Assembly: GCA_965222115.1 (NCBI GenBank)
Contig: CBDCTJ010000007.1
Span: 2,452,691 to 2,516,690, forward strand
Origin: Planctomycetota bacterium
GTDB lineage: Bacteria > Planctomycetota > PLA2 > JAEUHO01
Length of the DNA: 64,000 nt
Reading direction: 5' to 3'
Shown: positions 3,534-48,358 of the stretch, piece after piece
How the letters are laid out: each line of letters opens with the position of its first letter
How positions within the stretch are numbered: the stretch's first letter is position 1
The notes under the pieces: generated by a model
The model's input: the letters and a program-made list of their open reading frames with translations, nothing else
Databases searched by the model: none
Told to the model about the DNA's origin: nothing
Made by a program: the position numbers and the translations under genes

Positions 3534-3726
3534 TGCAGGTCTCCTTGACCCCATCCCCCGGGGTCAGGAGCTACATAGGATTTGCCCGCTGCGGATGGCG
3601 CGAAACTCGGCGAAATTCTTCCGCGCGTCAGCCCTGTCCCCATTTTTAGCGGCTTCGAGTTGCTCCGACCCGCGAAATCCGAAATTTTCCGTACGATGCC
3701 GACCGAAACACGTCTGTACGGGTGTC

Positions 3727-6700
3727 ATGTCAATGGATGCCGAACTACTTGAGCGCTACCGCACGCAGGGGGATCGCGATGCGTTGAACGAACTCTTGGG
3801 GCGTCACTATCCCCACGTGTATCAAGTGGCATTGCGGCTTGTGCACAACGAGTTCGACGCGCGCGATGTTGCGCAGTCCGTGTTCCTCAAGGCGATTCGA
3901 AGTGTTCATCAGGTTCGTAATCCCCGCGCGTTTCGTTCGTGGTTACTCAAGATCACGGTGAATGAGGTGCGTGGGGGGTGGCGCAAGCAGCAACGCGCAC
4001 CGCATCTGGAACAGTTGTTCGGCGAGATCGTGAGGACACAACCCGCCACACAGTCCAAGCAAGCAAGTCGTCGTGAATTCGAGTTGGCGCTTGAGAATAC
4101 TCTCGAATCAATGCCCCCTGAGCTCAAGGCACCTCTTGTGCTGCGCTATTACCAGGCGCTCTCTTTGTCGGAAATCGCGGAGATCTTGGAACTTCCTAAG
4201 TCCACCGCTCAGTTTCGTCTTCAGCGAGGCGTAAGGCGCCTTAGGCGCCGATTCGGTCGTAAACGACTTTCGCTCATGGCGCCATACCTGTCCGAGATAT
4301 CGATTCCTGGAACCGCTTCGGCACTCGTCACGGTGGGAGGGCTTTTCTGTATGAAAACAATCATGATTGGCGTTGGAGCCGTCGCCGTGATCCTTGGCGT
4401 CCTTCTCTTCCTGCTTAAAGCCGAGCCGCCTTCGTTTTACGCGCCATCAACGGCCAAAGGCGAAACCGATTCCCACGAATCGGACGAGGATCGTGACTCT
4501 CCACCAAAGCTAACCGCGAGCACAACGTCGGAGACTACCAGTCAGGAATCGAGTGAGACGATTGCTGACGTCGTTACTACAACGGGCCCTGGTGTGATTG
4601 GAGGCGTGGTCTTGGCGGAGGCTAGGGGACATCCCGTTTCGCACGCGCGTGTGGTGGTTCGATACGCACGCCACCACCGCAACAACTGGGTTACTGACGA
4701 TCACCCCAACGCTTGTGCCAATGTGTACTCAACCGACCGCAACGGTGAGTTTCGATGCCACGAGCTTCCTGTCGACCGCGTTTACGACCTACATGTGTCG
4801 CATCCAGACTTTGGTTATGTCGAACGTTGTGGCGTCACATTGAGCGTGTCGAGTCAACACGTCAATATGGGTGTTGTGGAGTTGCCCGAGCAGCGTGCAC
4901 TTCGTGGCATTGTTCGAGATGTGAACGGCACACCCGTCGCCGGCGTGAACATCTATGCAGGTGACTACGATCGAGCACTGCCCATGCTCTCGCCCACGCT
5001 CTCGTCAACGCTTCGACGGGGCGTGACGACGACAAGTGACCGACACGGGAAGTTCACCCTGCACGGGCTTGCGCCGGGATTCCATCGATTGCTCGCCATG
5101 CATCCGGGGTACGCAAGCACGGTTCGATCGAAGGTTTTCGTGCCACGCACCGCCAAGCCAGCGCACATAGATGTCACACTGAACGCTGTGAACGTTACAT
5201 CGGGCCTGGTATTGGACGAGCAAAAGCACCCCATCGCAAACGCCCTGATCATCGTGAACATCGATGAATTTTTTGAGCGAGGCTCGCGCGGATTTTCGTA
5301 TCGACATCACTGGTCGCGCATTCAGTCGGACGAACGAGGCATATGGCGCGTGACTGATTTCCCCGCCGATGGGCCCTATACCGTGTCGATTCGGATCGAG
5401 AAAGAGGGATATCAACCGAAGGATGTTGAGTACATTGGGCTGGGCTCCAAGTTAATGCCGGTTACCCTCACATCGAGTGATACGAAATTGGGCACCGTTG
5501 TGTCCGGAACCATTGTAGACGATCGAGGCGCACTTGTCGATGCGTCCAACGGCCAAGTGTGGCTTGTTTCCGTAGATAAACCGCGTATCGCGGGCACGTT
5601 TGATTCACTCACAAGTCAATATTCGTTCGAGGGCATAGCGCCGGGTCTCTATTCGATTCATGCGGATCTCTTGGGCTATCGGCGTGGCATCAAGAGTGAC
5701 GTGCGCGTGGCGTCCAGCCCGCTACCTGACATCCGCGTCTCGGTGTTGCGTGGACTCACATTGAATGGTCGAATACTCGATGCCAAGACCGATGAGCCCA
5801 TTCCCGGTGCACAGCTAATCTACCGTGGATTTACGATACACGCCGACACCATGGGTGCCTACGAACTCGGGGGACTGTCGAGCGGACGAACTACAGTCGG
5901 TGCAATCGGGCTGCGCGCTGCCGGTTACTTCGATGCATCGCCGTCATACTTCGCACCAAAGGACGCGCGTCATCACACACTTGACTTCAAGATGATTCCG
6001 GTAGACGAGGGCATCACAGTTCTCGGCAAGATAGTGGATGCATTTGGCAAGCCGATCGCGGGTGCCCACGTGCGCTACAAGACGGTCGACGGTGTGGTTC
6101 GTTCAGTTTCTGCATTTTCGAAGCGTGATGGATCGTTCGAGTTCCCGCCTCAAAAGGCCGATGCTCTCGAATCGACAGTCACGTTGATGGTGACCCACTC
6201 GCGATTTGCACCGTTGGAAGTTGGCGTGCCGAAGGCGGAAGCGCACCTACCGAACACGGTAGTGCTCAATCCAGGCAGATCGGTTGCGGGCACGGTCAAG
6301 GACTCAAGGGGCAAGCGTGTCTCTCACGCGCATGTAACCGCCGTGATCGGTCGAGTGCCCACGCGCCTCAAGGAAGGTGCGTTCGATGATCGCGAGGTGG
6401 CCAGCGCCCGTGAGATTGGGAGCGTCCTAGCCGACGCACGCGGAGACTTCGTAATTGAGCATCTGCCTAGCGAGGCCCTCACCCTGTTGGTCACCGGCAC
6501 CCGTGTGCGTTATACGATGGGGAAGGACCATATCGGACATGTGATTGCCAAGGGTGCCTCCGATGTCGTCGGTGTCTCGGTTCCGATTGAGCGCGAGCAG
6601 ATTGCGGAAGGCGTTGTGGTCTATGGCGATGGAACCCCTGCCCATGACGTGTCCTTACGTGCGTCGTCTACATTTGCGTGGACGCCCGTCCGGGAGGACG

Positions 6701-7062
6701 GGTCCTTTCGCATCGATGGCATCTACGGGCGCGGCGCTCAGCTCAAACTGAACGGAGTTACTGTTCGCCCGCGCGTCGCGCCCATCGAAGTCGCCGATCA
6801 GCCCATGCGCATAGTCGTGGATCGCTGCGGAATCGTTCATGGAACTGTGGGACTATCGGATCGCATACGTGCCGGTGCCGACGTTGTGATCGAGCGTTCC
6901 GATGGTGTGCATGAGCGAGCACCCTTGCAACGAACGGGCGCGTTTCGGTTCACGCGTGTGTTGCCGGGCGACTACGTCCTGCGCCTGGGCCAAATCGAAC
7001 TCGCCGTCAAGGTCAAGGCCGGCGAAACGACCGATCTGGGCGCACTGCGCGTCGAGAAATAG
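3727..7062 (+). CDS. ECF (sigma-70 family) sigma factor fused to a transmembrane segment and a large extracytoplasmic CarboxypepD_reg-repeat domain
   Basis: N-terminal ~190 aa carry sigma-70 region 2 (HVYQVALRLVHNEFDARDVAQSVFLKAIRS, RAFRSWLLKITVNEV) and region 4 (LPPELKAPLVLRYYQALSLSEIAEILELPKSTAQFRLQRGVRRLRRRF); hydrophobic helix LVTVGGLFCMKTIMIGVGAVAVILGVLLFLL; then ~850 aa with at least six units such as GIVRDVNGTPVAGVNIYAG...SDRHGKFTLHGLAPGFHRL and GKIVDAFGKPIAGAHVRYK...SKRDGSFEFP. Start placed at ATG 3727 (MSMDAELLERY); the track ORF opens at 3595. Confidence 0.7.
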   Translation: MSMDAELLERYRTQGDRDALNELLGRHYPHVYQVALRLVHNEFDARDVAQSVFLKAIRSVHQVRNPRAFRSWLLKITVNEVRGGWRKQQRAPHLEQLFGEIVRTQPATQSKQASRREFELALENTLESMPPELKAPLVLRYYQALSLSEIAEILELPKSTAQFRLQRGVRRLRRRFGRKRLSLMAPYLSEISIPGTASALVTVGGLFCMKTIMIGVGAVAVILGVLLFLLKAEPPSFYAPSTAKGETDSHESDEDRDSPPKLTASTTSETTSQESSETIADVVTTTGPGVIGGVVLAEARGHPVSHARVVVRYARHHRNNWVTDDHPNACANVYSTDRNGEFRCHELPVDRVYDLHVSHPDFGYVERCGVTLSVSSQHVNMGVVELPEQRALRGIVRDVNGTPVAGVNIYAGDYDRALPMLSPTLSSTLRRGVTTTSDRHGKFTLHGLAPGFHRLLAMHPGYASTVRSKVFVPRTAKPAHIDVTLNAVNVTSGLVLDEQKHPIANALIIVNIDEFFERGSRGFSYRHHWSRIQSDERGIWRVTDFPADGPYTVSIRIEKEGYQPKDVEYIGLGSKLMPVTLTSSDTKLGTVVSGTIVDDRGALVDASNGQVWLVSVDKPRIAGTFDSLTSQYSFEGIAPGLYSIHADLLGYRRGIKSDVRVASSPLPDIRVSVLRGLTLNGRILDAKTDEPIPGAQLIYRGFTIHADTMGAYELGGLSSGRTTVGAIGLRAAGYFDASPSYFAPKDARHHTLDFKMIPVDEGITVLGKIVDAFGKPIAGAHVRYKTVDGVVRSVSAFSKRDGSFEFPPQKADALESTVTLMVTHSRFAPLEVGVPKAEAHLPNTVVLNPGRSVAGTVKDSRGKRVSHAHVTAVIGRVPTRLKEGAFDDREVASAREIGSVLADARGDFVIEHLPSEALTLLVTGTRVRYTMGKDHIGHVIAKGASDVVGVSVPIEREQIAEGVVVYGDGTPAHDVSLRASSTFAWTPVREDGSFRIDGIYGRGAQLKLNGVTVRPRVAPIEVADQPMRIVVDRCGIVHGTVGLSDRIRAGADVVIERSDGVHERAPLQRTGAFRFTRVLPGDYVLRLGQIELAVKVKAGETTDLGALRVEK

Positions 7063-7182: not shown

Positions 7183-8859
7183 TTGGCGATGGAGCCCGAA
7201 GACGTCCGCTACCTCGCTGCTTTTGACAGCTTCCGCTTACCGCAACACCTCACCGACGTATTGGTGATCGGCACGGGCGTGGCGGGCTACTCAGCGGCGC
7301 TTTGGGCCGCACGTGGCGGCGCGCGCGTCATGGTGTTGGCCAAAGGCGAGCCGGGCGAAAGCAATACCGCCTACGCGCAGGGAGGCATCGCGGCGGTGCT
7401 CGCCGATGCCAAGAGCCGCAGTGATTCTCCCGAGGCTCATGCCGCCGACACAATACGCGTAGGGCACGGCCTGTGCGACGCTACGGTTGTCGAACGCGTC
7501 GCGCGCGAAGCGGCGGATCGCGTCGCGCTGCTTCAGGAACTCGGTGCGGCGTTTGACCTCAATGAAAAGGGCGTGTTGGCACGCGGACTCGAAGGTGGAC
7601 ATAGTCGGCCACGTATTCTTCATGCGCGCGGTGATGCAACCGGCGCCGAGATTCGCGATGTGTTGGCCAATGCCGTGACGTCCCACAAGAATGTAACGCG
7701 CTGGGGCGGTGCATTTGTTGTCGATCTTTTGAGCGACGACGACGGGCGCTGTCGCGGTGCGCTTGTGTTGTCGCGCGGGCATTTGCGTTGCGTTTGGGCG
7801 AGTACGGTCGTTTTAGCAGCGGGTGGCTACGGCCAGATCTATCAAGAGACGAGTAATTATCCCGGTGCATGTGGCGATGGGGTTGCGGCCGCGTTCCGTG
7901 CTGGCTGTGCAGTGCGTGATATGGAGTTCATTCAGTTTCATCCCACCACGCTCTATCTCGCGGGTGTACCGCGTATGCTGATCACCGAAGCGGTTCGCGG
8001 TGAAGGTGCACACATCGTGGATGGTAATGGGGAACGATTCCTAAAAGACGTTCACGAGCAGGCCGAACTTGCCCCGCGCGATGTGCTTTCGCGATCCATT
8101 CTCACTCGCTTGGCGAATCCGGAACATGGCGGGGTGTTTCTCGATCTGCGCCATTTGGATACTGAGAAGATGACGAAGCGCTTTCCGGGTGTGGCACGTT
8201 CGTGTGCGGCGCATGGATTGGATATTGGCGAGCATCGCATTCCCATTCGACCTGCCGCGCACTACACGATTGGCGGTGTGATTGCCGACATTGAGGGGCG
8301 AACGGCAATTCCTGGCCTCCTGGCGTGTGGTGAAGTGTCGTCAACGGGATTGCATGGCGCCAATCGACTCGCTAGCAACTCACTCTTAGAGGGCCTCGTT
8401 GCAGGGCGTCATGCGGGGGAACACGCGGTTCGCGATACGCGCGGAAAGAACGTTCGACCCGTAAAGATTCGAAGCGATGTCGAGCGACCGCGCGAAGGGC
8501 GTATCGATGTGCGCGACCTGCGGATTTCGCTCAAGGCGCTCACATGGCGTGATGTTGGAATTGTTCGAAATGGCGCCGAATTGATGGGGGCAGAAGGCGC
8601 CATCACTGCGTGGGAACGATTCGCGCACCGGGTGGGGAGCGAGGAAGACACGCGTCGCCTGACGCTACTCAATATGCTCTGTGTGGCGCGCCTGGCGAGC
8701 AAAGCGGCCCACATGCGCGAAGAAAGTCGTGGCACACACTTCCGTCTGGATTACAAGAAGCGGGACGACAAGGCGTGGCTTGGACATATCGTTCACGTGC
8801 GCGGCGAAGGAACACGATTTGAACGAATGCAGTCAGCAGACGACGGAAGCCGTGCATGA
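7183..8859 (+). CDS. nadB: L-aspartate oxidase
   Basis: FAD-binding N-terminus DVLVIGTGVAGYSAALWAARGG; SHRPRILHARGDATGAEI, GDGVAAAFRAGCAVRDMEFIQFHPTTLY, LITEAVRGEGAHIVD...ELAPRDVLSRSI, PIRPAAHYTIGGV and GLHGANRLASNSLLEGLV match recalled E. coli NadB motifs closely. Confidence 0.9.
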   Translation: MAMEPEDVRYLAAFDSFRLPQHLTDVLVIGTGVAGYSAALWAARGGARVMVLAKGEPGESNTAYAQGGIAAVLADAKSRSDSPEAHAADTIRVGHGLCDATVVERVAREAADRVALLQELGAAFDLNEKGVLARGLEGGHSRPRILHARGDATGAEIRDVLANAVTSHKNVTRWGGAFVVDLLSDDDGRCRGALVLSRGHLRCVWASTVVLAAGGYGQIYQETSNYPGACGDGVAAAFRAGCAVRDMEFIQFHPTTLYLAGVPRMLITEAVRGEGAHIVDGNGERFLKDVHEQAELAPRDVLSRSILTRLANPEHGGVFLDLRHLDTEKMTKRFPGVARSCAAHGLDIGEHRIPIRPAAHYTIGGVIADIEGRTAIPGLLACGEVSSTGLHGANRLASNSLLEGLVAGRHAGEHAVRDTRGKNVRPVKIRSDVERPREGRIDVRDLRISLKALTWRDVGIVRNGAELMGAEGAITAWERFAHRVGSEEDTRRLTLLNMLCVARLASKAAHMREESRGTHFRLDYKKRDDKAWLGHIVHVRGEGTRFERMQSADDGSRA

Positions 8860-10184
8860 AAATTGATCGCGGACCCAAGGTTCGGCGCGGTGGGGGAGAT
8901 CGCGAGAAAGCGATCCTCGTGGGACTCAAGTTGCCAGGCGATCCTGTGTCGTATCAAAAGCCCCTTGATGAACTCGAACGACTGGCCGATACTGCCGGCG
9001 CCGACACCGTAGACAAAATTGTGCAGTCGCGTGACCGTCCCGATGCCAAGACCTATATTGGGAAGGGCAAAGCCGAGGAAATCGGTGAGTTGCTGGTCGC
9101 CACGGGCGCAGATCTCGTGATCGTCGATCACGACTTGAGTCCGTCGCAGGCACGCAACCTTGAGAAGGTCATCAAAGGACGCGTGATTGACCGCACCGAG
9201 TTGATTTTGGACATTTTCGTGCGTCGTGCGAGTAGTGCGATGGCCAAGGCGCAAGTTGAGTTGGCGCAGATGCAATACAGTTTGCCTCGCCTAAAGCGCT
9301 TGTGGACGCACCTCAATCGGGAGGTGGCAGGCGGACGCGTAGGGATTGGTGTTCGTGGGCCGGGTGAAAAGCAGATTGAGACTGACCGGCGCCTCGTGCG
9401 GAGGCGAATTCGAGACCTGCAACGTGGACTGAAGGAGATGCAAAAGCATCGCGTGCTCCAAACCAAAGCACGCGACAAGTTCTTTACGATCTGTTTGGTG
9501 GGTTACACCAACGCGGGTAAGAGCACCCTGTTGCGTGCATTGACCGGCGCCGACGTGTTCATTCAAGATCGGCTGTTTGCAACGCTCGATACCACCACGC
9601 GGGCCTGGGAAATTGCACCGGGCCGCAAGGTATTCTTGTCGGACACGATTGGTTTCATCCGCGATCTGCCCCACCATCTCGTGAGTAGTTTCCTGGCAAC
9701 GCTCGAAGAAGCGCGGCGCGCGGATCTCCTTTTGCACGTGGTGGATGTCGCCGATCCGGATGCACTGGAACACGTCGATGTCGTTCAAGAGGCGCTGTAT
9801 TCGATTGGTGCCAGTGCGGTGCCGCGCATTACGGTGCTCAACAAGATCGATCGTCAGCGTGATCCCGTAACGCTAAGGTTGCTCGAGGAGCAACGCGCGT
9901 CGTGCGTGCGCACCAGCGCACAAACGGGCCGCGGCATAGACGAGCTACGAGACGCGGTGTATGGCTACGTCACGCGACACCACGTCAACCTCACCCTTTC
10001 GGTCTCCGCAGGCCGGGGCAAGTTGCTCACGCAAATACGGGAGTGGGCCGAAGTTGACGCCATTCGCTATGACGGCGACGACGCCATCCTCGACGTCCGC
10101 ATCGACCGTCCCCATGCCCGCCGCCTCCAGGAGATGGGCGTCCGCGTCCTTGAAGGTGCGGAGCAAATCGCCCTCTCCGAGTAG
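8856..10184 (+). CDS. hflX: GTPase HflX
   Basis: HflX N-domain (ELERLADTAGADTV...) followed by G-domain with P-loop GYTNAGKSTLLRALTG and DTIGFIRDLPHHLV; start overlaps nadB stop (ATGA). Confidence 0.9.
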   Translation: MKIDRGPKVRRGGGDREKAILVGLKLPGDPVSYQKPLDELERLADTAGADTVDKIVQSRDRPDAKTYIGKGKAEEIGELLVATGADLVIVDHDLSPSQARNLEKVIKGRVIDRTELILDIFVRRASSAMAKAQVELAQMQYSLPRLKRLWTHLNREVAGGRVGIGVRGPGEKQIETDRRLVRRRIRDLQRGLKEMQKHRVLQTKARDKFFTICLVGYTNAGKSTLLRALTGADVFIQDRLFATLDTTTRAWEIAPGRKVFLSDTIGFIRDLPHHLVSSFLATLEEARRADLLLHVVDVADPDALEHVDVVQEALYSIGASAVPRITVLNKIDRQRDPVTLRLLEEQRASCVRTSAQTGRGIDELRDAVYGYVTRHHVNLTLSVSAGRGKLLTQIREWAEVDAIRYDGDDAILDVRIDRPHARRLQEMGVRVLEGAEQIALSE

Positions 10185-10198
10185 TCGGCCAACTCTCA

Positions 10199-10269
10199 TG
10201 CGCCAAAAATACCTGGTATTTCTGGCGCACCGCGGAGCACGCGCCACAAAAGGCAGGCCTTTGTGGCGC
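10199..10269. repeat. two adjacent palindromes in the hflX / secDF convergent intergenic region (possible bidirectional terminator or REP-like element)
   Basis: TGCGCCAAAAATACC-T-GGTATTTCTGGCGCA at 10199..10229 (15-bp arms, 1 mismatch) and GCGCCACAAAAGGC-a-GCCTTTGTGGCGC at 10241..10269 (perfect arms); the first unit is the same family as three copies at 43160..43339. Confidence 0.7.
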
Positions 10270-10295
10270 GGGCCATTTCTGGTGGGGCGGGTGAG

Positions 10296-13200
10296 TTAGG
10301 TGGCGGCGGGGGCGAGTTCGGAGTCGCCCTCGACCTTGTGGGTGAGTGCCCAGGGAACGAGCATAACGAGCCCGTAGACGAAGGCGATAGCACCAAACAC
10401 CAGCCACCATGCGAGCCACACAAGGAAGATCACCGGGCTGAGGATCAGGAGCAGCGGATTCTCCAGGCACTTGGCGAGCATGCCCTTGGGCGGCGCGAAG
10501 CCCTTGATCTTCTCCCACAGCCACGGCAAGTAGAGCAGCAGCGGCGACGAGATGGCGATCGTCGAATAGGTACCGATGATCGAACCCAGGATCAGGAGGA
10601 ACGCGAAGCCTTCCAGCACGTTTCGTTGCCCGATGTTGAACGCAAAGAGCGCCAAACACACGAGCAAGAACGTGGCCGACGTCTTGATGGTTCGCGCCAA
10701 CGTCTGATTGATCGACAGGTTGATCAATGGTGCGTCAATATCGGGTCGCTTGCCGCGGTTCTCACGAATACGGTCAAAGATGACCACCGTGTCATTGACC
10801 GAATACCCAACGAGCGTCAGGAACGCGGCCACCATTGCCAGGTTGATCTTGGCATCCACGATTCCGAGCGTATTGGCGATTGCCACCAAGCCGAGCGTAA
10901 TGGCGACGTCGTGGAAGAGACACAACACCGCCGCAAAGCCCATCGCCCGCGAACGGAATCGAATCGCGATGTACACAATGATGCCCAGCAACGACAACAC
11001 GAGTGCCAGCATGGCGTCGTTCTTCAGTCGCTGTGCGACGCTCGAACCAATCACGTCCGTCGAACGGAATGGTGCGCTCAAGCCGAAGTTTTCTTCACTG
11101 AGCCCAGCGTTTCCTACGTCCTTTGCAATCTCGGCGCGGAACTCAGGCCCGTCCAAGTACGCATCCAGTCGATTTTGAAGATCGTGCCAGTCGCCGTCGA
11201 GCGAGTCGCCGTTTGCGGCTGTGGTCTTAATCCAAATGTCAAAGGCGTTGAGTGCAGCAATCGGCTGTTTCGCCGGGCGTACCACCACCGCGCGTTTGAG
11301 TCCCTGGACTTCACTTGGAAGCTTGGGAACGTCTTTCCCATCCTCGAACTGCCAATGCGGAAACTTGGTCTGAAGTAGTGTTTCAAGCACCGTCGGTTTG
11401 ATGAGCTTGTCCGCATCACGAAATCCGATCTGCAAGTGCCATCCGCCATCGACCGCCGCGAGCGCAGGGTCGGCGCCGGCAGCGTCTTCATCGGCGGCCT
11501 TGGGGTGTTCGTATTTGGTGGGGGCCTCGAGAGACGAGTTCGGCATGAGGCGATCGTGGAGCACGCCCTCGATGTACTTCATGAACGCGCGCGACTGGAG
11601 CTCCTCGCTCAACTCGCTTTGCTTCTCATCGAACAGGCGCTGCACCTTAATTTCCGTGGAGCGCCCTTCGGTGCCCACGGCAAGAACTTGGGCACTTGGA
11701 AAGGGCCCAACATTCAGTGTGACGGGGCGCAGCTTGTCTTCGCCCTTCTCGTCTTTGTACTCCTCCTGAATCGTGACTTCGCGGGCCTCGGAGAGCGCCT
11801 GCTTTACATCGTCGACGGATGTTGTCTTGTGAAATGCGGCCTGCGCCTTGTAGCCACCCGTGAAGTCAACGTCATACAGCGTGTACTTATCGGTCCCGGC
11901 AAAGATAACCAACCCGGTAACCACAGCGGCTACGGAGATAGGCAGGAACAGTCGACGAAGCCCAATCCAGTTGGTGCGCGGTGGCACACCGGTGCCGAGC
12001 ATGCCGAGCTTCTTGAGCCAACCCTTGTGCAACATCCACTCAACGATGGTACGCGTTACGAAGATGGCCGTGAACATAGAGACCATCAGGCCGATGGCCA
12101 GCGTGATTGCGAATCCACGCACGGGACCCGAACCAAATTTGAACAGGAAGATGGCCGTAATGATGGACGTTACGTTGGCGTCGATGATGGCGCTCAGTGC
12201 GCGGTCATAGCCTTCGGACACCGCGCGGCGCAGGCTCCGGCCGCCGCGTAACTCCTCACGAATACGCTCGTTAATCAGAATATTCGCGTCCACCGCCATA
12301 CCCACGGTCAACACAATGCCGGCGATACCCGGCAGTGTGAGGACTGCCTGGAAGAACGCCAAAAAGCCCACCAGCAACACAAGGTTGAGCAGCAGCGCGA
12401 TGTTGGCCACCATGCCTGTGGCGCGGTAGTAGATGAACATGAACACAAGCACGAGCAGGAAAGCCACGATGATCGAAAGCAGGCCGCGATTTCGCGACTC
12501 ACCCGCAAGCGAGGCGCCGATTCGCGTCTGCGCTTCCAGCGTGGGCTGTACTTTCAGCGAACCGGTTTGAAGCACTGTAGCAAGCTGCTCGGCTTCCTCC
12601 TGTGTCGACCGGCCAAGCGTGATTTGCACGTTGTCTCGTAGCGTTTCCTGAATCGTGGGTGCGGAGAAGTACTCCTTGTTCAGGATGATGGCCATGGGGA
12701 GCTTCTTGTTCCGACCCGTCCACTCGGCAAACACATTTTGATATTCGTTCTTGACGTTGTAGAGCACGACCCAGCCGGGATTGCTCATATCGGCTGAAGG
12801 CGCCGCAACTGGATTGACCAGGATACGGCCATCAAAGAAATAGCGGTCGCCAGGCCCGCCGGTTTCTTCAAGTACGTGAAACTCGTTGACGTTTGATCCT
12901 GGTGCCCCTTTGGACTTGACGACTCGAAAGCGTTTGTCGGACGGCTTGTATTCGATGCCCTTGTCGCGCGCTGCCTGCCAGAGTTCGACTTCCTTCTTCT
13001 TGAATGCCTCGAATCTTCGTTCGGCGGCTTCGTCTGATTCCGTGGGCGAGAGTTTCGGCCAGACTCCTTTACGCTCGGGGATTTGATCTTCCCTATTTCC
13101 GGCTCTCGCGAGGTACGTGCTGTCCGGCAATACCTCGATTTGAAACCGCAGGTCACCGAGTTGCGTAACGAGGCCCGCAATGTAGTCGGCTCGTGACGCC

Positions 13201-13511
13201 GCGCCCGACGGCAGTGAAATCTCGAACTTGTTGTCACCCAGCGGCGTGATGTTGGTCTCCGCCAACCCGGATGCGTTGATACGTTGGTCGATGACCTTGA
13301 TCGTATCCGTGACGACCTTGACCGGATCGGTCGTAGGTTCAATATCTCCACGCGCAATCGCGCGTTCCAAATCGAGTGAAAATCGTAGGGTCGTTCCACC
13401 CTCCAAGTCTTGCCCGAGTTTGATTCCCGAGGCCAGGAAGGCCCAAATCAAGATGCCGGTGACCGCGAGGATGACCCAGAACCGGCCCTTTAGATCGGAT
13501 TGTTCAATCAT
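10296..13511 (-). CDS. secDF: protein translocase subunit SecDF (fused SecD-SecF)
   Basis: ~1070-aa multi-TM protein with large periplasmic loops and paired 6-TM bundles (FAITLAIGLMVSMFTAIFVTR; NTLGIVDAKINLAMVAAFLTLVGYSVNDTVVIFDRIRE); downstream of yajC. Start placed at ATG 13511 (MIEQSDLKGRF) with GGAG 7 nt upstream. Confidence 0.85.
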   Translation of the reverse strand: MIEQSDLKGRFWVILAVTGILIWAFLASGIKLGQDLEGGTTLRFSLDLERAIARGDIEPTTDPVKVVTDTIKVIDQRINASGLAETNITPLGDNKFEISLPSGAASRADYIAGLVTQLGDLRFQIEVLPDSTYLARAGNREDQIPERKGVWPKLSPTESDEAAERRFEAFKKKEVELWQAARDKGIEYKPSDKRFRVVKSKGAPGSNVNEFHVLEETGGPGDRYFFDGRILVNPVAAPSADMSNPGWVVLYNVKNEYQNVFAEWTGRNKKLPMAIILNKEYFSAPTIQETLRDNVQITLGRSTQEEAEQLATVLQTGSLKVQPTLEAQTRIGASLAGESRNRGLLSIIVAFLLVLVFMFIYYRATGMVANIALLLNLVLLVGFLAFFQAVLTLPGIAGIVLTVGMAVDANILINERIREELRGGRSLRRAVSEGYDRALSAIIDANVTSIITAIFLFKFGSGPVRGFAITLAIGLMVSMFTAIFVTRTIVEWMLHKGWLKKLGMLGTGVPPRTNWIGLRRLFLPISVAAVVTGLVIFAGTDKYTLYDVDFTGGYKAQAAFHKTTSVDDVKQALSEAREVTIQEEYKDEKGEDKLRPVTLNVGPFPSAQVLAVGTEGRSTEIKVQRLFDEKQSELSEELQSRAFMKYIEGVLHDRLMPNSSLEAPTKYEHPKAADEDAAGADPALAAVDGGWHLQIGFRDADKLIKPTVLETLLQTKFPHWQFEDGKDVPKLPSEVQGLKRAVVVRPAKQPIAALNAFDIWIKTTAANGDSLDGDWHDLQNRLDAYLDGPEFRAEIAKDVGNAGLSEENFGLSAPFRSTDVIGSSVAQRLKNDAMLALVLSLLGIIVYIAIRFRSRAMGFAAVLCLFHDVAITLGLVAIANTLGIVDAKINLAMVAAFLTLVGYSVNDTVVIFDRIRENRGKRPDIDAPLINLSINQTLARTIKTSATFLLVCLALFAFNIGQRNVLEGFAFLLILGSIIGTYSTIAISSPLLLYLPWLWEKIKGFAPPKGMLAKCLENPLLLILSPVIFLVWLAWWLVFGAIAFVYGLVMLVPWALTHKVEGDSELAPAAT

Positions 13512-13746
13512 GATGAAACTCCATCTGCCGCTTCCGTGCGTGCAGACCATGGACGGCGGGCCGAAGCCCGACTTCGAAAGAAAGCTCTCGTAGGTTCACT
13601 GAACGACGTTCAGATTGAGATCACGCTTACGAGAATGCGCCCAACGCACACACAGCATTCGTGCATGCGGTTCGAGTCTGCCTTGGCTAGCGCGACGTGC
13701 CGCGTCGAGGCAGTTGGGGACGGGCTAAGCCCCCAATGCATGTGGA

Positions 13747-15820: not shown

Positions 15821-16000
15821 GCACGCGCGTGGTTGTGACGAACACCATGACAACGTCGGCTCTCCATCGGGCGTATAGCTGTGATGCAGGGGAACGCGCC
15901 ACCATGAATGAGGCGCCTCGTGTCACTACCCCGTCTCGTTGGACGCCCGACTGTCACGCGCGTGACGAATCAATTGCCATACGCGCACGAACGAAAGAAC

Positions 16001-22096: not shown

Positions 22097-22127
22097 CGTC
22101 CAGACCTCCGCTCGTTTCGGCCCGCTA

Positions 22128-22450
22128 CGCCTGCGCTTCGTTTCTTAGCGTTCTTAGTGTGAGCTATTTCTTCAAGCACCGTTCCGCCACCTCCAAACAC
22201 CCGCATTCACCGACTGCCATCCCAAACGCTTGCGCCCCTCTGCGCCTCTGCGGTCTCTGCGCGCGGCTAAAACCGACTAAACAAGAAACTCCTCGTTCTC
22301 CGGTTGCGCTTGGTGATCTTGGTGTCCTTCGTGAGAACCTTCTTCTTCAAACGGCGCCACACAACCAATCACGTACGCTCCCGCCAAACAACGCACCCCA
22401 ACGCTTGCGCTCCTCTGTTTGGCGCACAAAGAAACCCGGCCTCCCCAACG
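22128..22450. repeat. right copy of the imperfect inverted repeat flanking the 20801..22096 gene
   Basis: See left copy; contains a 9-bp internal duplication (GGTCTCTGC) and a second partial unit CCCCAACGCTTGCGCTCCTCTG at ~22396. Confidence 0.8.
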
Positions 22451-22508
22451 GGAAGACCGGGTGCGGTTCGATTCACACTGCGCGAGCGCAGCGACGAAAC
22501 TGTGTCAA

Positions 22509-27157: not shown

Positions 27158-27210
27158 GTTTCGCCGGATGATTCGTGCGCCAACGCTGAGATCGTCCTTC
27201 CGGAACCGAT

Positions 27211-28168: not shown

Positions 28169-28225
28169 CAATTCGGCTACGTAGCGAATCGGTTGGCGCA
28201 CGCCACATGCTATGAAGGAAACCCC

Positions 28226-39041: not shown

Positions 39042-40586
39042 ATGCGATCCACACAATCCTCATCCCCTGCCATTCGTAGCGGGCGCCTCTTGCTGGTGTC
39101 GCTTCAGGTGGTTTTGGCGGCAACCCTCGCTGCCTGCGGTGGCGGAGGTGGTGGGAGCGCAGATGTCATCACCTTCTACTTGGCCGACACCACGCCTCGT
39201 GATGGCCACGTCAATGTACCGACCAATCAGATCATTAGTTTGGTCTTCAACAAAGACGTTGATCCGCTGACGGTTACTCCCTCGTCACTGTCTATCGTTG
39301 CCAACGATGCCGGGGCGATTCAGGGAACGCTAACGCAGTCACAGACTCGGCCCCGAGAACTGCGGTGGGTGCCGTCCGAACTCATGGTGGCAGGGGAACG
39401 TCACTTTTGCACCGTGTCGAGCGGGTTACGTTCCGTCGATGGCGAGGCGCTTTCCGGTGCCACGCAGTTTGAGTTCCATACCATTGGCGGTTCGACCGGC
39501 CCCCCGATCCCCGATCCAACGCGGCTTCGGCGAACCATTGGATCGATGAACGAAGGCCGGCAGTCACACCGCGCCACGCTACTAACTGATGGCCGCGTTT
39601 TGGTTACGGGTGGTTTCGATAGCGGATCGCACGCAACCGATACGGCCGAGTTGTATCTGCCGTTCAACGACACGTTTATCAATACGTCCAACGAGATGCT
39701 GACTGAACGCGCGAGCCATGCATCCGTACGACTTGCAAATGGACATGTGCTCATTTGCGGTGGATTCCGTCAGCAGAGTGGAAGTACGTTGACCGCCCTG
39801 GCGACGGCCGAGGTATACAATCCTGCGTCCAACACGTTTGCGCCGGTGGGCGACATGGCGGTGGAACGCGCCAACCACACGGCAACACTGTTGGACGATG
39901 GGCGCGTGCTGATCGCCGGCGGAAGCACCTACGTGTCGGGCTCGTTGACCGACCACATTACTGCCGAGATCTACGATCCCGGAACGTCAACATTTGCGCT
40001 CTTATCCGAAGACATGCTGCACACACGCAGCAGCCATGTGGCGCTGAAACGATCCGACGGTGACGTTGCACTCTTTGGCGGAAGCCAAGGCGACCTGCGC
40101 GTGGGTGTCTTTGATCCCACCACCGATTCGTTTACCAGCTTGGGAATTCCACCATCGGCGTCGGCACAGTTTGGTGCCGCGGCAGCCCTGTTCCCGAGCG
40201 GCGGTATTTCCGTTGCAGGTGGCAGCGTGCGCGGCGATGTCTTTCATTTGCGTGACGGTGAGACCTTTGTCTTCAATACCGGTAGCCCGCTGTGGCGTGC
40301 ACGCTCGTATGCGACGTCCAGTGTGATTGCACCCGACACGCTCATGGTTGTGGGTGGCATCGACTTTTCACGCGGTGGTTTGATTGAGTCGTCGGTAGAT
40401 ATCATTGTTGAAGGCGGCGTTGGCGGTAGTCGCACCTACGCCACGAGTATGCGTTTCCCAACAGGCATGGCGGCACATACGGCGACGAAACTGGCGAATG
40501 GTGATGTGCTTTTCTGTGGCGGACTCGATCCAGCGGGCGTGGCAAGTTACAACGCCGCATATATTTACGAAGTGCCAACCGAGTAG
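39042..40586 (+). CDS. Kelch-repeat beta-propeller lipoprotein with N-terminal Ig-like domain
   Basis: Signal peptide and lipobox (LAATLAACGGGGGG); repeated Kelch-like blades (RQSHRATLLTDGRVLVTGG, RASHASVRLANGHVLICGG, RANHTATLLDDGRVLIAGG, RSSHVALKRSDGDVALFGG). Confidence 0.65.
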   Translation: MRSTQSSSPAIRSGRLLLVSLQVVLAATLAACGGGGGGSADVITFYLADTTPRDGHVNVPTNQIISLVFNKDVDPLTVTPSSLSIVANDAGAIQGTLTQSQTRPRELRWVPSELMVAGERHFCTVSSGLRSVDGEALSGATQFEFHTIGGSTGPPIPDPTRLRRTIGSMNEGRQSHRATLLTDGRVLVTGGFDSGSHATDTAELYLPFNDTFINTSNEMLTERASHASVRLANGHVLICGGFRQQSGSTLTALATAEVYNPASNTFAPVGDMAVERANHTATLLDDGRVLIAGGSTYVSGSLTDHITAEIYDPGTSTFALLSEDMLHTRSSHVALKRSDGDVALFGGSQGDLRVGVFDPTTDSFTSLGIPPSASAQFGAAAALFPSGGISVAGGSVRGDVFHLRDGETFVFNTGSPLWRARSYATSSVIAPDTLMVVGGIDFSRGGLIESSVDIIVEGGVGGSRTYATSMRFPTGMAAHTATKLANGDVLFCGGLDPAGVASYNAAYIYEVPTE

Positions 40587-40788
40587 GCCGTCTCTGCACC
40601 TTCCCGTATCCGTCTCTGAATCTTAATCTGTAGCCTGACCCTTTCCTTCTCCCGCAGCGATCGCGTACGCCGATGGGTCCGGCGCAAGGTCAGGAGAAAG
40701 AATCAGTGGCAGAATAGGAACAGGCTGCCGTAGCGCGCGGCTCCAGCTTGCGTGATGAATGTTGACGAGTCGAGAGTAGGATCCTCGC

Positions 40789-42966
40789 ATGCGGCGCCAA
40801 AAGACCCTCACCGTCATGTTCACCGATATCTCGGGGTTTACGAAGCACACCGAGACCGTTACGCGCGATGAATTGATGGCGCGGCTCGACGAGCACAACG
40901 CCCTACTCATGCCCATTGTGCGCCACTTTGAAGGTCGTATTGTGAAGTCCATTGGCGATGCGCTCATGATCGTCTTCGAAAGTCCAACGAACGCCGTGCA
41001 ATGTGGGATGTTGATGCAACATCGATTGGCGCGCCACAACCGTGGCAGGGTTGAATTCGAACAGATACACATCAAGGTTTCGCTCAACGCTGGCGAAGTC
41101 ACAGTAACCGAGAACGATGTCTTTGGCGATTGCGTCAATGTGGCGGCAAAGATTGAGAAGGCCACACGGCCCGACGAAATCTACTTCACGGAATCGGTCT
41201 TCCTCGCCATGAACAAAGCGGAGGTGCCCAACGTCTTCGTAAAGAACTTTCGACCTAAGGGTGAACAGAGCCATGAGATCAAGCTCTACAAGGTCATCCA
41301 AGATGTAACCAACGAACAGTACGCACGTCTTATCCGCGATACGGACATTAAGGACGACGATCCATCCGACGCGCTTGAGCTATCGGATCTTGCAGGCAGC
41401 GATCTTCCTAGCGGCCACGACTCCTTGGCGGAACTCATTGCCGACGAACGGGCACGTTCGCGAAAGAACCTTTTGCTGGCAACGGCCTTAGGCGCCTTGT
41501 TGCTCGGCGGGCTCGTCGTAGGGGGACTGGCGCTGTTTAGTGGCAGCAAAGGCCCCACCGCTGCCGATCGTACGACCGACGCCGTTCGTGCCTACTTGGC
41601 CAAAGGCAATGTGGAGGGCGCCCGATCCGCGATCGCCAATTTTGGAGCCGACGGCGGGAGTCAAGAACGCATTGCGCAGTTGCAGCGCGAGATTCACGCC
41701 TATCAGGGTGGTGAATCGGTAAAGCGCATCAAGGCGCTACTTGCCGACGACAACGTGGACGATGCCCGTTCACTTGTCGGTAGCAATCGCGAGTTCATTC
41801 CGACCGCGTTGCTGACTCACATCGATGCGCTAGCGGCGGCGGAACAGGCGCTACGCGACGGCGACGCGGAGGCGGCGCGTAAGGGCTTGCAGGGTGCGGA
41901 CCCGACGTTCACTCCGAGGAACGCCTACGCGGCGTGCAAGAAGCGAATCGAGGCCATCGATACCGCGTGGCACGTGCATGAACACTCGGAATCGGTCGAT
42001 GACGCAGAGCGAGCAATCGAGGTCCTGTCGGGGGCATTCGGAGACGACACCCATCATCCTGTGGCCACGCGTATTTTGGGCGACATGATCATTCGTTCTG
42101 TTGGCATGACAGCTCGGACGAGTGGGCGCAAGGCGATCCGCGAGCACTTTGACGCGCTCATGAAACGCTTTCCAGGTATCAAAGATCGCACGCGTATTCG
42201 CCGCGAAGTGCAGCTCCACGCGCTGTGGTTTTACACGAGTGACTACGAGGCTCGACGTCGCTGGCGCGGTCGATTTGACAGCCAGAGTCAACGGGAGATT
42301 GCTACGCTTCGCGAGCTGGGCAAAGGCGATGCCGACTTTTTGTTTCGACTTGGCGTCACGCGCCACCGGATTTCGCGAAAGAACGGACTCGGCATATCGG
42401 ATGGCGCGCAAGACATTGAGAGCGCCATGAAGTTGGATCCGCGCCTCATTGAAACGCGTGCCGACGAGTTGTACCCGATTGCGATCGATTGGCTACGTTG
42501 GGTGTCGTCTCCCGATTCACTGGCCCACAAGCTCGTTACGGGCCCCTTCAAAGAGCGTGCGCGCGAGCATCTTTTTGCCCGTGCCTTTGCTCCCTACGGT
42601 GGCAAGCGCGACGACGCACCGCGGCCTGAAGAACGCGCCAATGCTGTTGCGGCGTTGGTTGCCATGAATGCACCGATCGAAACCGAACAAGCCGTGGAGT
42701 TTGTGACCAACAACTGGAAGACCGTGCTCACGGGTCGCAATCCGATCATTTCCATCGATGTCTTTGCTGCTCTCTTTGCCCGCAAGGACATGGCCTACGA
42801 GTACTTCGAACGCTTGGCAGGCGACATCAAACGGATCCAAACCGAACTGGGCGCCAAGCGAGGCAAGTTCAGCGCCTACAAGCACGCCCGCGATCGCATC
42901 CTCGCTCTCCGCCGCACCCTCATCGACGCCCACCCCGCTCACGCCAAACGCTTCGCCGCAAACTAG
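40789..42966 (+). CDS. class III adenylate/guanylate cyclase: N-terminal catalytic domain, single TM, large C-terminal helical domain
   Basis: Cyclase motifs LTVMFTDISGFT, VKSIGDALMIVF, GDCVNVAAKIE; hydrophobic helix LLLATALGALLLGGLVVGGLALF at ~aa 225-250; ~470 aa of helical/TPR-like sequence after it. Confidence 0.75.
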   Translation: MRRQKTLTVMFTDISGFTKHTETVTRDELMARLDEHNALLMPIVRHFEGRIVKSIGDALMIVFESPTNAVQCGMLMQHRLARHNRGRVEFEQIHIKVSLNAGEVTVTENDVFGDCVNVAAKIEKATRPDEIYFTESVFLAMNKAEVPNVFVKNFRPKGEQSHEIKLYKVIQDVTNEQYARLIRDTDIKDDDPSDALELSDLAGSDLPSGHDSLAELIADERARSRKNLLLATALGALLLGGLVVGGLALFSGSKGPTAADRTTDAVRAYLAKGNVEGARSAIANFGADGGSQERIAQLQREIHAYQGGESVKRIKALLADDNVDDARSLVGSNREFIPTALLTHIDALAAAEQALRDGDAEAARKGLQGADPTFTPRNAYAACKKRIEAIDTAWHVHEHSESVDDAERAIEVLSGAFGDDTHHPVATRILGDMIIRSVGMTARTSGRKAIREHFDALMKRFPGIKDRTRIRREVQLHALWFYTSDYEARRRWRGRFDSQSQREIATLRELGKGDADFLFRLGVTRHRISRKNGLGISDGAQDIESAMKLDPRLIETRADELYPIAIDWLRWVSSPDSLAHKLVTGPFKERAREHLFARAFAPYGGKRDDAPRPEERANAVAALVAMNAPIETEQAVEFVTNNWKTVLTGRNPIISIDVFAALFARKDMAYEYFERLAGDIKRIQTELGAKRGKFSAYKHARDRILALRRTLIDAHPAHAKRFAAN

Positions 42967-43159
42967 GCTCTGTCTGAAAGCTCCTCTACTGCGCAATCCG
43001 ATCCTCTCGCTGCGAGTCGCGTCCCTTCGAAATTGCCGTCCTCGACGTGAACAGACCACGCCTGCGGGCCAATTTCTTGGTCCATCGACTCTCGCATCGG
43101 TCTCCCGCGTTTATTGAAGAGACACGGGCTCGTCACGAGGCTTTTCAGGCAGGGCCTAA

Positions 43160-43339
43160 TGCGCCACAAATACCAGGTATAGTTGGCGCACGGGCCCGTA
43201 GACGCCCATTCGTTGGGCTCGCCCCGGCGCGCGATACTCGTCGTGCGCCACAGAAACCAGGTATTTTTGGCGCATGCCGATAGGCGAGCGCGCTACGCGA
43301 CATGGCGGTGCGCCAGAAAAACCAGGTATTTTTGGCGCA
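43160..43339. repeat. three tandem copies of a ~31-bp palindromic repeat in the cyclase / lpdA convergent intergenic region
   Basis: TGCGCCACAAATACCAGGTATAGTTGGCGCA (43160..43190), TGCGCCACAGAAACCAGGTATTTTTGGCGCA (43244..43274), TGCGCCAGAAAAACCAGGTATTTTTGGCGCA (43309..43339); same family as 10199..10229. Confidence 0.8.
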
Positions 43340-43343
43340 CGGA

Positions 43344-44753
43344 TTAGGGGTTGAGAATGTGGATGGCTTTGCCGTGAACGGCTTCGGCGGCTTCCATGAG
43401 GGATTCGGGCCAGGTGGGGTGGGCGTGGACCGTGAGGGCAATGTCTTCGCTAGTGGCGCCCATTTCGATGGCGAGCGCGGCTTCGGCGATGAGGTCGGAA
43501 GCTTGGTAGCCAACGCCGGACACGCCCAGTACTTCATCGGTTTCGGGATCCGCAATGATCTTTACGAATCCGTCGGTGGCACTCACGGAGAGCGCGCGAC
43601 CCAAGGCTGTGAACGGGAACTTGCCCACCTTTACGTTACGCCCCGCTTCTTTGGCCTCGTGTTCCTGTAGTCCTACGGTTGCGACTTCGGGATGGGTGAA
43701 CGTTGCGGCGGGCATGGCACGCACGTCGTAGACGCTACTCGTGTTCCCGGCCGCGTGCTCGGCTGCCACAATGCCTTCCTTGCTTGCCTTGTGGGCCAGC
43801 CACGGCAATCCGGCGACGTCACCAATCGCGTAGATGTGTGGCACATTGGTCTGTCGGCTTTCGTTTACGGCGAAGTGACCCGTGTCGTCGATTTGTAAGC
43901 CGGCCGCATCGCGACCCACGCGATCGGAATTGGGTTTGAAGCCAATCGCACACAGGACGACTTCGGAGGGTATCGACAGTTCTTTCCCCTTCTTATCCTT
44001 TGCTTTCACGATGAGGTTTTTGCCGGTGCCTTCGATGGCTGTGGCACCGGTTTCCTTATGAATCTTCCCCTTGAGTTTCTTGATCGACTTCTCGACCACC
44101 TTTACGAGGTCGGGATCCGTACCGGGAAGGAGCGACTTGGTCAGCTCAATCACGGTCAACTTGGAACCCAAGCGCTGGAAGACAGTCCCTAGCTCTAGGC
44201 CAATCACGCCGCCGCCAATTACCGTGAACGAATCCGGCACCCAATCGATGTCGAGCGCCTCGCGATAGGTCATGACATTGCCGCCGATGGGCAGAAACGG
44301 CAGGGTGGCCGCACGTGCTCCGGTAGCCACAATGCACTTGTCAAATGATACCGCCTGCGTCTTGCCGTCGCTGTCCTTCACAGCGAGAGCCTTCGGCGAC
44401 GTGAACTCGGCATGTCCGTGAATCGTGGTCACGCCGTTCTTACTAAGCAAGAAACCAACACCTGTTGTGAGGCGATTGACGATGCCCGACTTCCACTCCT
44501 GGAGCTTCTTCCCGTCTACCTCGACATCACCAACGACAACGCCCATGGCATCGGCCTTGCGAATCTTGTCCACCAAGCCACTTGCGTAGATCAAGCTCTT
44601 TGAGGGAATGCAACCCACATTGAGACACACGCCACCAATCTTGTCCTCTTCGATGACGGCAGTCTTGAGTCCGAGTTGACCTGCACGAATGGCGGCCACA
44701 TAGCCGCCCGGCCCAGATCCAATCACGACAAGATCAAAGTGTTGATCAGCCAT
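43344..44753 (-). CDS. lpdA: dihydrolipoyl dehydrogenase (E3)
   Basis: FAD motif DLVVIGSGPGGYVAA; redox disulfide GGVCLNVGCIPSK; C-terminal HAHPTWPE interface motif. Confidence 0.9.
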   Translation of the reverse strand: MADQHFDLVVIGSGPGGYVAAIRAGQLGLKTAVIEEDKIGGVCLNVGCIPSKSLIYASGLVDKIRKADAMGVVVGDVEVDGKKLQEWKSGIVNRLTTGVGFLLSKNGVTTIHGHAEFTSPKALAVKDSDGKTQAVSFDKCIVATGARAATLPFLPIGGNVMTYREALDIDWVPDSFTVIGGGVIGLELGTVFQRLGSKLTVIELTKSLLPGTDPDLVKVVEKSIKKLKGKIHKETGATAIEGTGKNLIVKAKDKKGKELSIPSEVVLCAIGFKPNSDRVGRDAAGLQIDDTGHFAVNESRQTNVPHIYAIGDVAGLPWLAHKASKEGIVAAEHAAGNTSSVYDVRAMPAATFTHPEVATVGLQEHEAKEAGRNVKVGKFPFTALGRALSVSATDGFVKIIADPETDEVLGVSGVGYQASDLIAEAALAIEMGATSEDIALTVHAHPTWPESLMEAAEAVHGKAIHILNP

Positions 44754-44807
44754 TGAGAACTCCTCACGCGACGCGCGTAGCGCCTCGTGCATGAAAGAAC
44801 AGATTCG

Positions 44808-47380: not shown

Positions 47381-48358
47381 CTATTCCCAGCGCGCCGTGT
47401 ACTCAATGGCATTGAGTACACGTGCCTTGTCGGGCTTGTACACATGCTCAAGCGCATAGGGGAAGGGCGTGTCGAATCCTGCAACACGAGCGATGGGCGC
47501 TTCGAGATACTCGATGGCTTTCTCGGCAACTGTTGCAGACACTTCGGAAGCGAAACCACACGTGCGTGGTGCTTCCTGAACGGCCACACAACGCCCGGTC
47601 TTCTTTACGCTTTCAACTACTGACGCAGCGTCCCACGGAAGCAAGCTGCGAAGATCAATGATCTCAGCGTCGATGCCCTTTTCTGCGGCCTCCGCCGCCG
47701 CAGCCTCAACGATGGGCACCATAGCGCCCCACGTGACAACCGTGATGTCGTTGCCGCTGCGCACCGTGCGTGCCTTGTCGAGCTCAACGGTGAAGTAGCC
47801 CTCGTCCACGTCTTGTTTGCCATGGCGATAAAGTGCTTTGGGCTCTAAGAACAGCACCGGGTCATCGCAAAAGATGGATGAGAGCAACATGCCCTTCGCG
47901 TCAGACGGTGTGCTTGGCATGACCACGCGCAAGCCGGGTGTGTGGGCAAAGTAGGCCTCACTTGACTGCGAGTGATAGTGACCGCCGCGAATGCCTCCAC
48001 CGGACGGCGAACGAATCACCATGGGGCAGGTGAAGTGACCGCCGGAGCGATAGCGCATTTTCGCGGCCTCGGAAACGATTTGGTCAAAGCCGGGATAGAT
48101 AAAATCTAAGAATTGAATCTCTGGCACCGGTCGCAACCCGTAGAGCGCCATGCCAATGGCTGTGCCCATGATGCCGCACTCTGAAAGCGGCGTATCCATC
48201 ACGCGCAGGTCGCCGTACTTGTTGTGAAGTCCGTCGGTGGCGCCAAATACGCCACCTTTCTTGCCGATATCTTCACCCAACATCACAACGTCGCCATCGC
48301 GATCCATCGCGAGATGCAGGGCGTCGTTGATGGCTTGCAGCATGGTCATCTGAGGCAT
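47381..48358 (-). CDS. 2-oxoacid dehydrogenase E1 component beta subunit
   Basis: Transketolase-like pyrimidine-binding and C-terminal domains (VVMLGEDIGKKGGVFGAT, ITVVTWGAMV); ~325 aa. Confidence 0.85.
   Translation of the reverse strand: MPQMTMLQAINDALHLAMDRDGDVVMLGEDIGKKGGVFGATDGLHNKYGDLRVMDTPLSECGIMGTAIGMALYGLRPVPEIQFLDFIYPGFDQIVSEAAKMRYRSGGHFTCPMVIRSPSGGGIRGGHYHSQSSEAYFAHTPGLRVVMPSTPSDAKGMLLSSIFCDDPVLFLEPKALYRHGKQDVDEGYFTVELDKARTVRSGNDITVVTWGAMVPIVEAAAAEAAEKGIDAEIIDLRSLLPWDAASVVESVKKTGRCVAVQEAPRTCGFASEVSATVAEKAIEYLEAPIARVAGFDTPFPYALEHVYKPDKARVLNAIEYTARWE

Follow-up and report, generated by a model that had tools for sequence, protein, structure and literature searches.

A 31-bp palindrome that occurs three times between a class III adenylate/guanylate cyclase gene and lpdA in an uncultured Planctomycetota genome probably represents a lineage-specific, untagged family of REP-like palindromic elements (estimated probability about 0.6). 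The window, that is, the whole stretch of DNA that was analysed, comprises 64 kb. Besides the triplet (copies c1, c2, and c3), it contains a fourth copy of the same family at another locus (c4), these four being referred to as A copies, and a neighboring variant designated B. The positions of these members and of the adjoining genes and spacers are compiled in Table 1.

Table 1. Members of the palindrome family, predicted hairpin stabilities, scores with covariance model R1, and genomic surroundings in the 64-kb window
Feature	Positions	Strand	Sequence	Predicted RNA hairpin (kcal/mol)	R1 score (bits)	Remarks
Copy c1	43160-43190	+	TGCGCCACAAATACCAGGTATAGTTGGCGCA	-14.6 (+) / -15.8 (-)	51.3	most decayed copy; start 193 nt past the cyclase stop codon
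Copy c2	43244-43274	+	TGCGCCACAGAAACCAGGTATTTTTGGCGCA	-16.3 (+) / -11.8 (-)	54.9	
Copy c3 with conserved 5' flank	43305-43339	+	GCGG + TGCGCCAGAAAAACCAGGTATTTTTGGCGCA	-20.2 (+) / -15.5 (-)	55.8	palindrome itself 43309-43339
Gaps between triplet copies	43191-43243; 43275-43308					53 nt; 34 nt
Copy c4 (same family, opposite polarity)	10199-10233	-	GCGG + TGCGCCAGAAATACCAGGTATTTTTGGCGCA	-21.3 (-) / -15.9 (+)	56.8	palindrome 10199-10229; 14 nt past the hflX stop codon
Variant B	10240-10270	+	CGCGCCACAAAAGGCAGGCCTTTGTGGCGCG	-24.3 / -25.7	50.3	31-nt architecture as in A copies; 10 nt from c4; end 25 nt short of the secDF stop codon
Convergent intergenic spacer with triplet	42967-43343					377 nt; from ORF map and Pfam
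Convergent spacer with c4 and B	10185-10295					111 nt
Class III adenylate/guanylate cyclase gene	40789-42966	+				PF00211, E = 2.4e-16
lpdA, dihydrolipoyl dehydrogenase	43344-44792	-				Pyr_redox_2 and Pyr_redox_dim; last gene of a 2-oxoacid dehydrogenase operon
hflX	8856-10184	+				converges with secDF
Fused secDF	10296-13550	-				converges with hflX

A repeat search of the window returned a direct family with three members (43160-43193, 43244-43277, and 43309-43342), whose starts are 84 and 65 nt apart. These results reproduce both the coordinates and the spacing which an earlier note on this DNA had given for three copies of one palindrome, and its placement of the triplet at a convergent junction between the cyclase gene and lpdA agrees with the gene map. 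Identity among the copies is 82-88% over 34 nt, and 27-29 of 31 residues (87-94%) agree over the palindrome core, with 29/31 for c2 and c3. Taken singly, each is self-complementary at 24-26 of its 31 positions; the lowest value belongs to c1, which carries a 3x3 internal mismatch. The sequences between the copies had been described as non-identical, and local alignment scores of gap against gap and of gap against upstream flank were indeed no higher than those of shuffled sequences. Copy c3 ends only 4 nt from the lpdA stop codon (43344-43346). Searches of the triplet region for tRNAs, Rfam families, sigma-70-like promoters, and terminators composed of a hairpin and a T-tract were negative; the spacer gave no Rfam match at the gathering threshold or at E ≤ 1, and terminator-like sites of the hairpin plus T-tract kind numbered zero between 42500 and 43800.

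Three direct repeats of about 31-34 nt with unique sequence between them could also be taken for a degenerate CRISPR-like mini-array or another regular direct-repeat array, such as iterons or a type III antitoxin. However, the gaps of 53 and 34 nt are uneven, the repeats are not near-identical, and an inverted solitary copy is found beside a variant elsewhere in the window. Moreover, the array is placed between two convergent stop codons, and no cas, RT, or toxin gene adjoins the triplet, its neighbors being the cyclase gene and lpdA. The earlier note had judged the arrangement not to be CRISPR-like; given the irregular spacing and the context, this reading is considered refuted, with practically no probability left to it.

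The repeat unit is a 31-nt near-palindrome with the layout TGCGCCA-N5-ACCAGGT-N5-TGGCGCA, composed of two GC clamps of 7 bp, an AT-rich inner stem, and an ACCAGGT centre. Neither the outer clamps (TGCGCCA / TGGCGCA) nor the core ACCAGGTA varies among the four A copies; variable sites are positions 8, 10, 12, and 22-23, and the changed positions in c1 and c2 are uncompensated. The A copies are preceded by CTAA, GTCG, GCGG, and GCGG, and the triplet copies are followed by CGGGCC, TGCCGA, and CGGATT. The unit has a polarity because its central base (A) is asymmetric and because position 8/24, with C·T or G·T in the A copies, never forms a Watson-Crick pair in them. In one relative orientation the A copies are identical at 27-30 of 31 positions, versus 25-27 when one of them is flipped. 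For the triplet alone, the values are 27-29/31 direct and 25/31 flipped, which assigns one polarity to all three copies; c4 is inverted relative to them.

Folded as RNA, all members are predicted to form hairpins of 13-15 bp on either strand, with energies from -11.8 to -21.3 kcal/mol in the A copies and about -25 kcal/mol in B, most of them clearly better than those of shuffled sequences. For c2, c3, and c4 the strand with A in the centre yields the more stable structure because of G·U pairs. Over all members, 24-28 of the 31 positions are self-complementary. In variant B, pairs 1/31, 8/24, and 13/19 differ from the A copies on both sides and the palindrome is kept. Counted as one event in a single lineage, these double changes agree with a role of the hairpin or palindrome as such, although the evidence they give is weak.

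The second locus strengthens the picture of a dispersed family. When c3 with its GCGG flank was aligned to the reverse complement of 10199-10233, 34 of 35 residues were identical in two copies located 33 kb apart and in opposite orientation. The GCGG sequence, common to c3 and c4, lies immediately 5' of the palindrome and outside the stem; a match of this kind including the flank is the appearance that would be expected of copies of one element. The kinship which the earlier note had asserted among the triplet copies and with the copy at 10199 is borne out by these alignments. With up to three mismatches, the consensus was found at four loci in the window compared to 0.00 expected from 100 dinucleotide shuffles. 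Variant B, of opposite polarity to c4 and identical to it at 22 of 31 positions, looks like a sister subfamily of the A copies. A covariance model, R1, was built from the five members, the four A copies and B. Apart from these, the best R1 match in the 64 kb reached 13.5 bits (E = 0.26), leaving exactly five members in the window.

All five members are extragenic and confined to two convergent spacers, with starts 4-25 nt from a stop codon except for c1. Other strong palindromic hairpins are scarce in the window; a hairpin scan revealed only two, both unrelated to the family, at 16000 and 47396. In the latter, 13 bp pair perfectly around a single central nucleotide (CGTGTACTCAATG G CATTGAGTACACG, 47396-47422); it is located in the dehydrogenase operon at the 3' end of an E1-beta-like gene (47381-48358), just upstream of an E2-like gene. 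Among the remaining genes of the window, an ORF of 1155 aa (3595-7062) has an unusual architecture in which N-terminal ECF-type sigma-70 regions 2 and 4 are combined with multiple CarboxypepD_reg and Big_1 domains.

A third convergent spacer of 412 nt (22097-22508) deserves a separate description. It contains half-site-like sequences, GCGCCACACAACC at 22354 and TTTGGCGCAC at 22418-22427, a pair of 9-bp clamps, CGCCAAACA / TGTTTGGCG, at 22382-22424, and a 22-nt direct repeat, CCCAAACGCTTGCGCCCCTCTG, at 22221 and 22396 with 91% identity. The segment 22354-22427 may be a split or degenerate relative of the family; its R1 score is just 10.5 bits. The only convincing terminator with a hairpin and a T-run seen in the window is located in the same spacer on the minus strand (22462-22434).

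REPs have been described as short imperfect palindromes of 20-40 nt in extragenic DNA, and REP-like families without a tag are known from several phyla, while tagged families occur in Planctomycetes (PMC3733652), so that elements of this kind are not new to the phylum. The elements reported here agree with this description in size (31 nt), in self-complementarity and predicted hairpin stability, and in the extragenic location of five out of five members. Like REPs, including the untagged families described in PMC3733652, they occur scattered and in either orientation, cluster in 3' spacers, are polar and lineage-specific, and possess a conserved non-pairing position in the stem. Unlike REPs, they have no unpaired GTAG or CGTC tag, neither motif adjoining the hairpins consistently in the flanks of the four A copies, and their inner stem is AT-rich between GC clamps, whereas REPs are GC-rich throughout. 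Five copies at two loci were seen in the 64-kb window; typical REPs number more than 100 genome-wide.

The earlier note had likened the triplet to BIME-type clusters, a comparison that holds only in part. As in the BIMEs of enterobacteria, several REP-type palindromes share one intergenic spacer, a situation often met at operon 3' ends and here at a convergent junction. On the other hand, BIMEs are characterized by regular spacing and alternating orientation of the REPs (PMC2817692) and also have conserved linker motifs, with an IHF site in some classes, whereas the triplet copies are direct, irregularly spaced, and separated by unrelated linkers, and no match to the IHF consensus (WATCAANNNNTTR) was found at the triplet. 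A BIME in the strict sense was therefore rejected. The functions which the note had also proposed, as bidirectional terminator, mRNA stabilizer, or nucleoid-protein site, would be conceivable for these hairpins, which are predicted to be stable and are not followed by a T-tract. Similarity to REPINs, inverted doublets of one REP family that form one long hairpin and are mobilized by RAYTs, is apparent at the second locus, where c4 and B are arranged with opposite polarity at a distance of 10 nt. Yet c4 and B come from different subfamilies and are each palindromic in full on their own, and the triplet has no inverted partner. Readings as iteron, attC, dif, or parS were rejected on anatomy and context, and a DNA-uptake sequence was rejected since the 7-mer half-sites show no excess elsewhere in the window.

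Searches of genomes, metagenomes, viral, plasmid, and phage sequences, and Rfam, in collections that do not include the window's own genome, yielded no further instance of the repeat in this form. In 185,579 GTDB representative genomes, the pattern TGCGCCA-N5-ACCWGGT-N5-TGGCGCA yielded only six single matches in unrelated phyla, and the looser GCGCCA...TGGCGC form gave 101 single matches in JGI metagenomes (241 million records) and one in IMG/VR. In all matches that were read out, the inner sequence was GC-rich or unrelated, and most matches were in GC-rich DNA. The two most similar look-alikes (L024 and L103) reside inside a methyltransferase-like coding ORF of an organism with 35% GC. All pattern matches in the genome, metagenome, and viral collections were isolated, in coding DNA, and of unrelated inner sequence, and they were dismissed as chance. 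Plasmid and phage sequences contained no blastn match to the spacer.

The genome is represented by one assembly, and a protein 100% identical to the LpdA of the window is encoded on a contig of 3,070,730 bp. Among 5.8 billion protein clusters, the nearest non-identical LpdA is 87% identical, the closest HflX 75%, and the closest cyclase outside this genome 46%; the closest named relatives are metagenome-assembled genomes labelled "Planctomycetota bacterium". The window has a GC content of about 59%, versus 67-69% in all relatives retrieved. In two of these, L111 and L112, with HflX 74-75% identical, the convergent hflX/secDF junction is kept with spacers of 29 and 38 nt that are free of the palindrome; subtraction of c4, the 10-nt linker, and B from the corresponding spacer in the window leaves 39 nt. 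In two others, L108 and L109, LpdA is 85-87% identical and the C-termini align, and a co-directional gene follows 10-22 nt after the same stop position, again without palindrome. Downstream of the nearest cyclase homologues (42-46% identical) comes either a tRNA gene or a spacer of 19 nt. R1 produced no match with E under 0.03 in 69 kb of L108, L109, L111, and L112 and none with E ≤ 0.1 in L113 and L114, about 92 kb of relatives' DNA overall, and a hairpin scan of the relatives detected no comparable palindrome family.

Two further observations were made in these comparisons. Between window positions 39042-43344 and positions 7313-12251 of L109, the segment separating a Kelch/Big_5 gene from lpdA is rearranged between the lineages: the window has the cyclase gene and the repeat spacer, and L109 has HEAT, VWA, Ddl-like, and HMA genes. 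At the hflX/secDF junction of L111, an unrelated 14-bp hairpin (GTCGGCGCCGACTC ... GAGACGGCGCCGAC, 11294-11325) spans the hflX stop codon; no strong hairpin is present at this junction in L112. A hairpin at the junction may recur although its sequence is not conserved.

How the triplet arose can be narrowed down from the gaps. Since these are no more alike than shuffled sequences and the palindromes they separate are 87-94% identical, tandem duplication of a unit together with its spacer was rejected. The pattern points to separate insertions of the palindrome, and the comparison with relatives is in line with this. Unrelated gaps between similar palindromes would, however, also be expected from selection acting on the palindromes alone.

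In a different interpretation, the repeats would be non-mobile terminators or 3'-end stabilizers that were selected in place and form bidirectional hairpin clusters in a genome making little use of canonical terminators. Several observations fit. The members follow stop codons at convergent junctions (4 nt for lpdA, 14 nt for hflX, and 25 nt for secDF), their hairpins are predicted to be stable on both strands, canonical terminator-like sites are no more common than in shuffled sequences across 60 kb, and the hairpin at the hflX stop codon of L111 occupies an equivalent place, so that the conserved feature of this junction may be a hairpin as such. From RNA-seq data it has been argued that clusters of hairpins near stop codons, with fewer than 15 bases between the hairpins, terminate transcription without U-tails (PMC8355165). 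The resemblance to canonical and hairpin-cluster terminators thus lies in stable hairpins soon after stop codons and in the presence of more than one per spacer. The differences are a missing U-tract, distances of 34-53 nt between the hairpins, which exceed the limit of that cluster definition, and a sequence common to unrelated loci. A canonical intrinsic terminator was rejected, as no T-tract follows the hairpins, and at least for mycobacterial RNA polymerase a U-tract is stated to be needed at intrinsic terminators in the title of PMC3993855, a paper addressing proposals of noncanonical terminators. In addition, selection in place would leave unexplained the near-identical sequence at unrelated loci, the conserved flank outside the stem, and the common non-pairing position 8/24. 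It also does not account for the decayed c1, distant from the cyclase stop codon, for the lack of a strong hairpin at the junction in L112, or for the presence of the element at only two of about five convergent junctions in the window. For these reasons, non-mobile terminators or stabilizers appear unlikely, and dispersal of a REP-like element is preferred.

The strict conservation of parts of the unit invites another thought, namely that it is read as double-stranded DNA by a dimeric protein, for instance a nucleoid-associated factor, a recombinase, or a partition-like protein, the triplet being a cluster of sites. Invariance of the outer 7-bp half-sites and of ACCAGGT in four out of four A copies, with uncompensated variation in between, would suit such a site. 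Also, two further intergenic regions (27174-27183 and 28193-28202) contain the half-site-plus-flank 10-mer TTGGCGCACG by itself, which brings its occurrences in the window to four versus 0.58 expected. By count alone, however, the two solitary 10-mers outside the palindromes are not significant against the same expectation. Furthermore, all full sites are in convergent spacers devoid of promoters, and half-site centres 24 bp apart are unusual for a dimeric regulator. The joint alteration of both half-sites in variant B is more in keeping with a hairpin than with an operator, and the IHF consensus is absent. Protein-binding sites are accordingly regarded as distinctly improbable compared with a hairpin-forming REP-like element.

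The surroundings of the solitary 10-mers may be noted in their own right. They belong to an exact 11-bp inverted pair, CGTGCGCCAAC / GTTGGCGCACG (27174-27184 and 28192-28202), which is identical in sequence to the outer arm and flank of c1. The two members are placed in intergenic DNA, some 25 nt ahead of the start codons of a HEAT-repeat gene (27211) and of an ORF resembling STAS or anti-sigma antagonists (28227), and together they bracket an RsbW-like HATPase_c_2 gene. Solitary half-sites, decayed copies, and chance occurrences are all conceivable explanations.

If the palindrome spreads, the agent has to be considered. Many DDE transposon ends start with 5'-TG and finish with CA-3'. The unit begins and ends in the same way, and its copies are dispersed in both orientations, so that it might be viewed as a minimal MITE with two 15-bp terminal inverted repeats (TGCGCCAGAAATACC-like) moved by a DDE transposase. 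No consistent target-site duplication or flanking direct repeat was recognized around the four A copies, however, and neither a transposase gene nor a longer element with these ends is present in the window. To our knowledge, described MITEs are all far longer than 31 nt. A minimal MITE is therefore very improbable.

Under the preferred reading as a REP-like family, the 31-35-nt unit would spread as a discrete element, and the cluster would have been built by successive insertions, c3 next to lpdA being the youngest-looking copy. The most plausible agent would be a single-strand, hairpin-specific enzyme of the HUH/Y1 type (RAYT-like) or an equivalent. Mobilization by a hairpin-specific HUH enzyme is put forward tentatively and by analogy, as a possibility with considerable doubt attached. 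RAYT genes (Y1 HUH transposases, PF01797) usually have their REPs on either side; among 36 ORFs of the window scanned against Pfam, no transposase, recombinase, or Y1/RAYT gene was detected. Convergent spacers would tolerate insertions because they contain no promoters. Transcribed copies would leave the lpdA-operon and cyclase mRNAs with 3'-terminal hairpins, which might impede 3'->5' exonucleases as well as read-through into the antisense gene, a role described for REPs elsewhere. Liang, Rudd and Deutscher reportedly found in 2015 that, in E. coli, a REP situated no more than about 15 nt from a stop codon lowers translation via ribosome stalling. At 4 and 14 nt, c3 and c4 would fall in this range.

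A more far-reaching interpretation would place the repeats in an undescribed class of untagged palindromic elements belonging to a deep and poorly sampled Planctomycetota lineage. Such elements would either spread by means other than RAYTs or act as the main hairpin-only bidirectional terminator or 3'-end protector in a genome lacking canonical terminators, with GC clamp, AT core, and ACCWGGT serving as a recognition code. We consider a class of this kind quite unlikely.

The findings have no bearing on any long-standing open question. For annotation, they account for two unusually long convergent spacers and advise caution with small ORFs overlapping them. If confirmed genome-wide, the repeats would add a family of untagged REP-like elements in a Planctomycetota lineage without close sequenced relatives. 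If confirmed, they would also offer a small test case for the spread of palindromes without a GTAG or CGTC tag, and for hairpins alone marking 3' ends where canonical terminators are absent.
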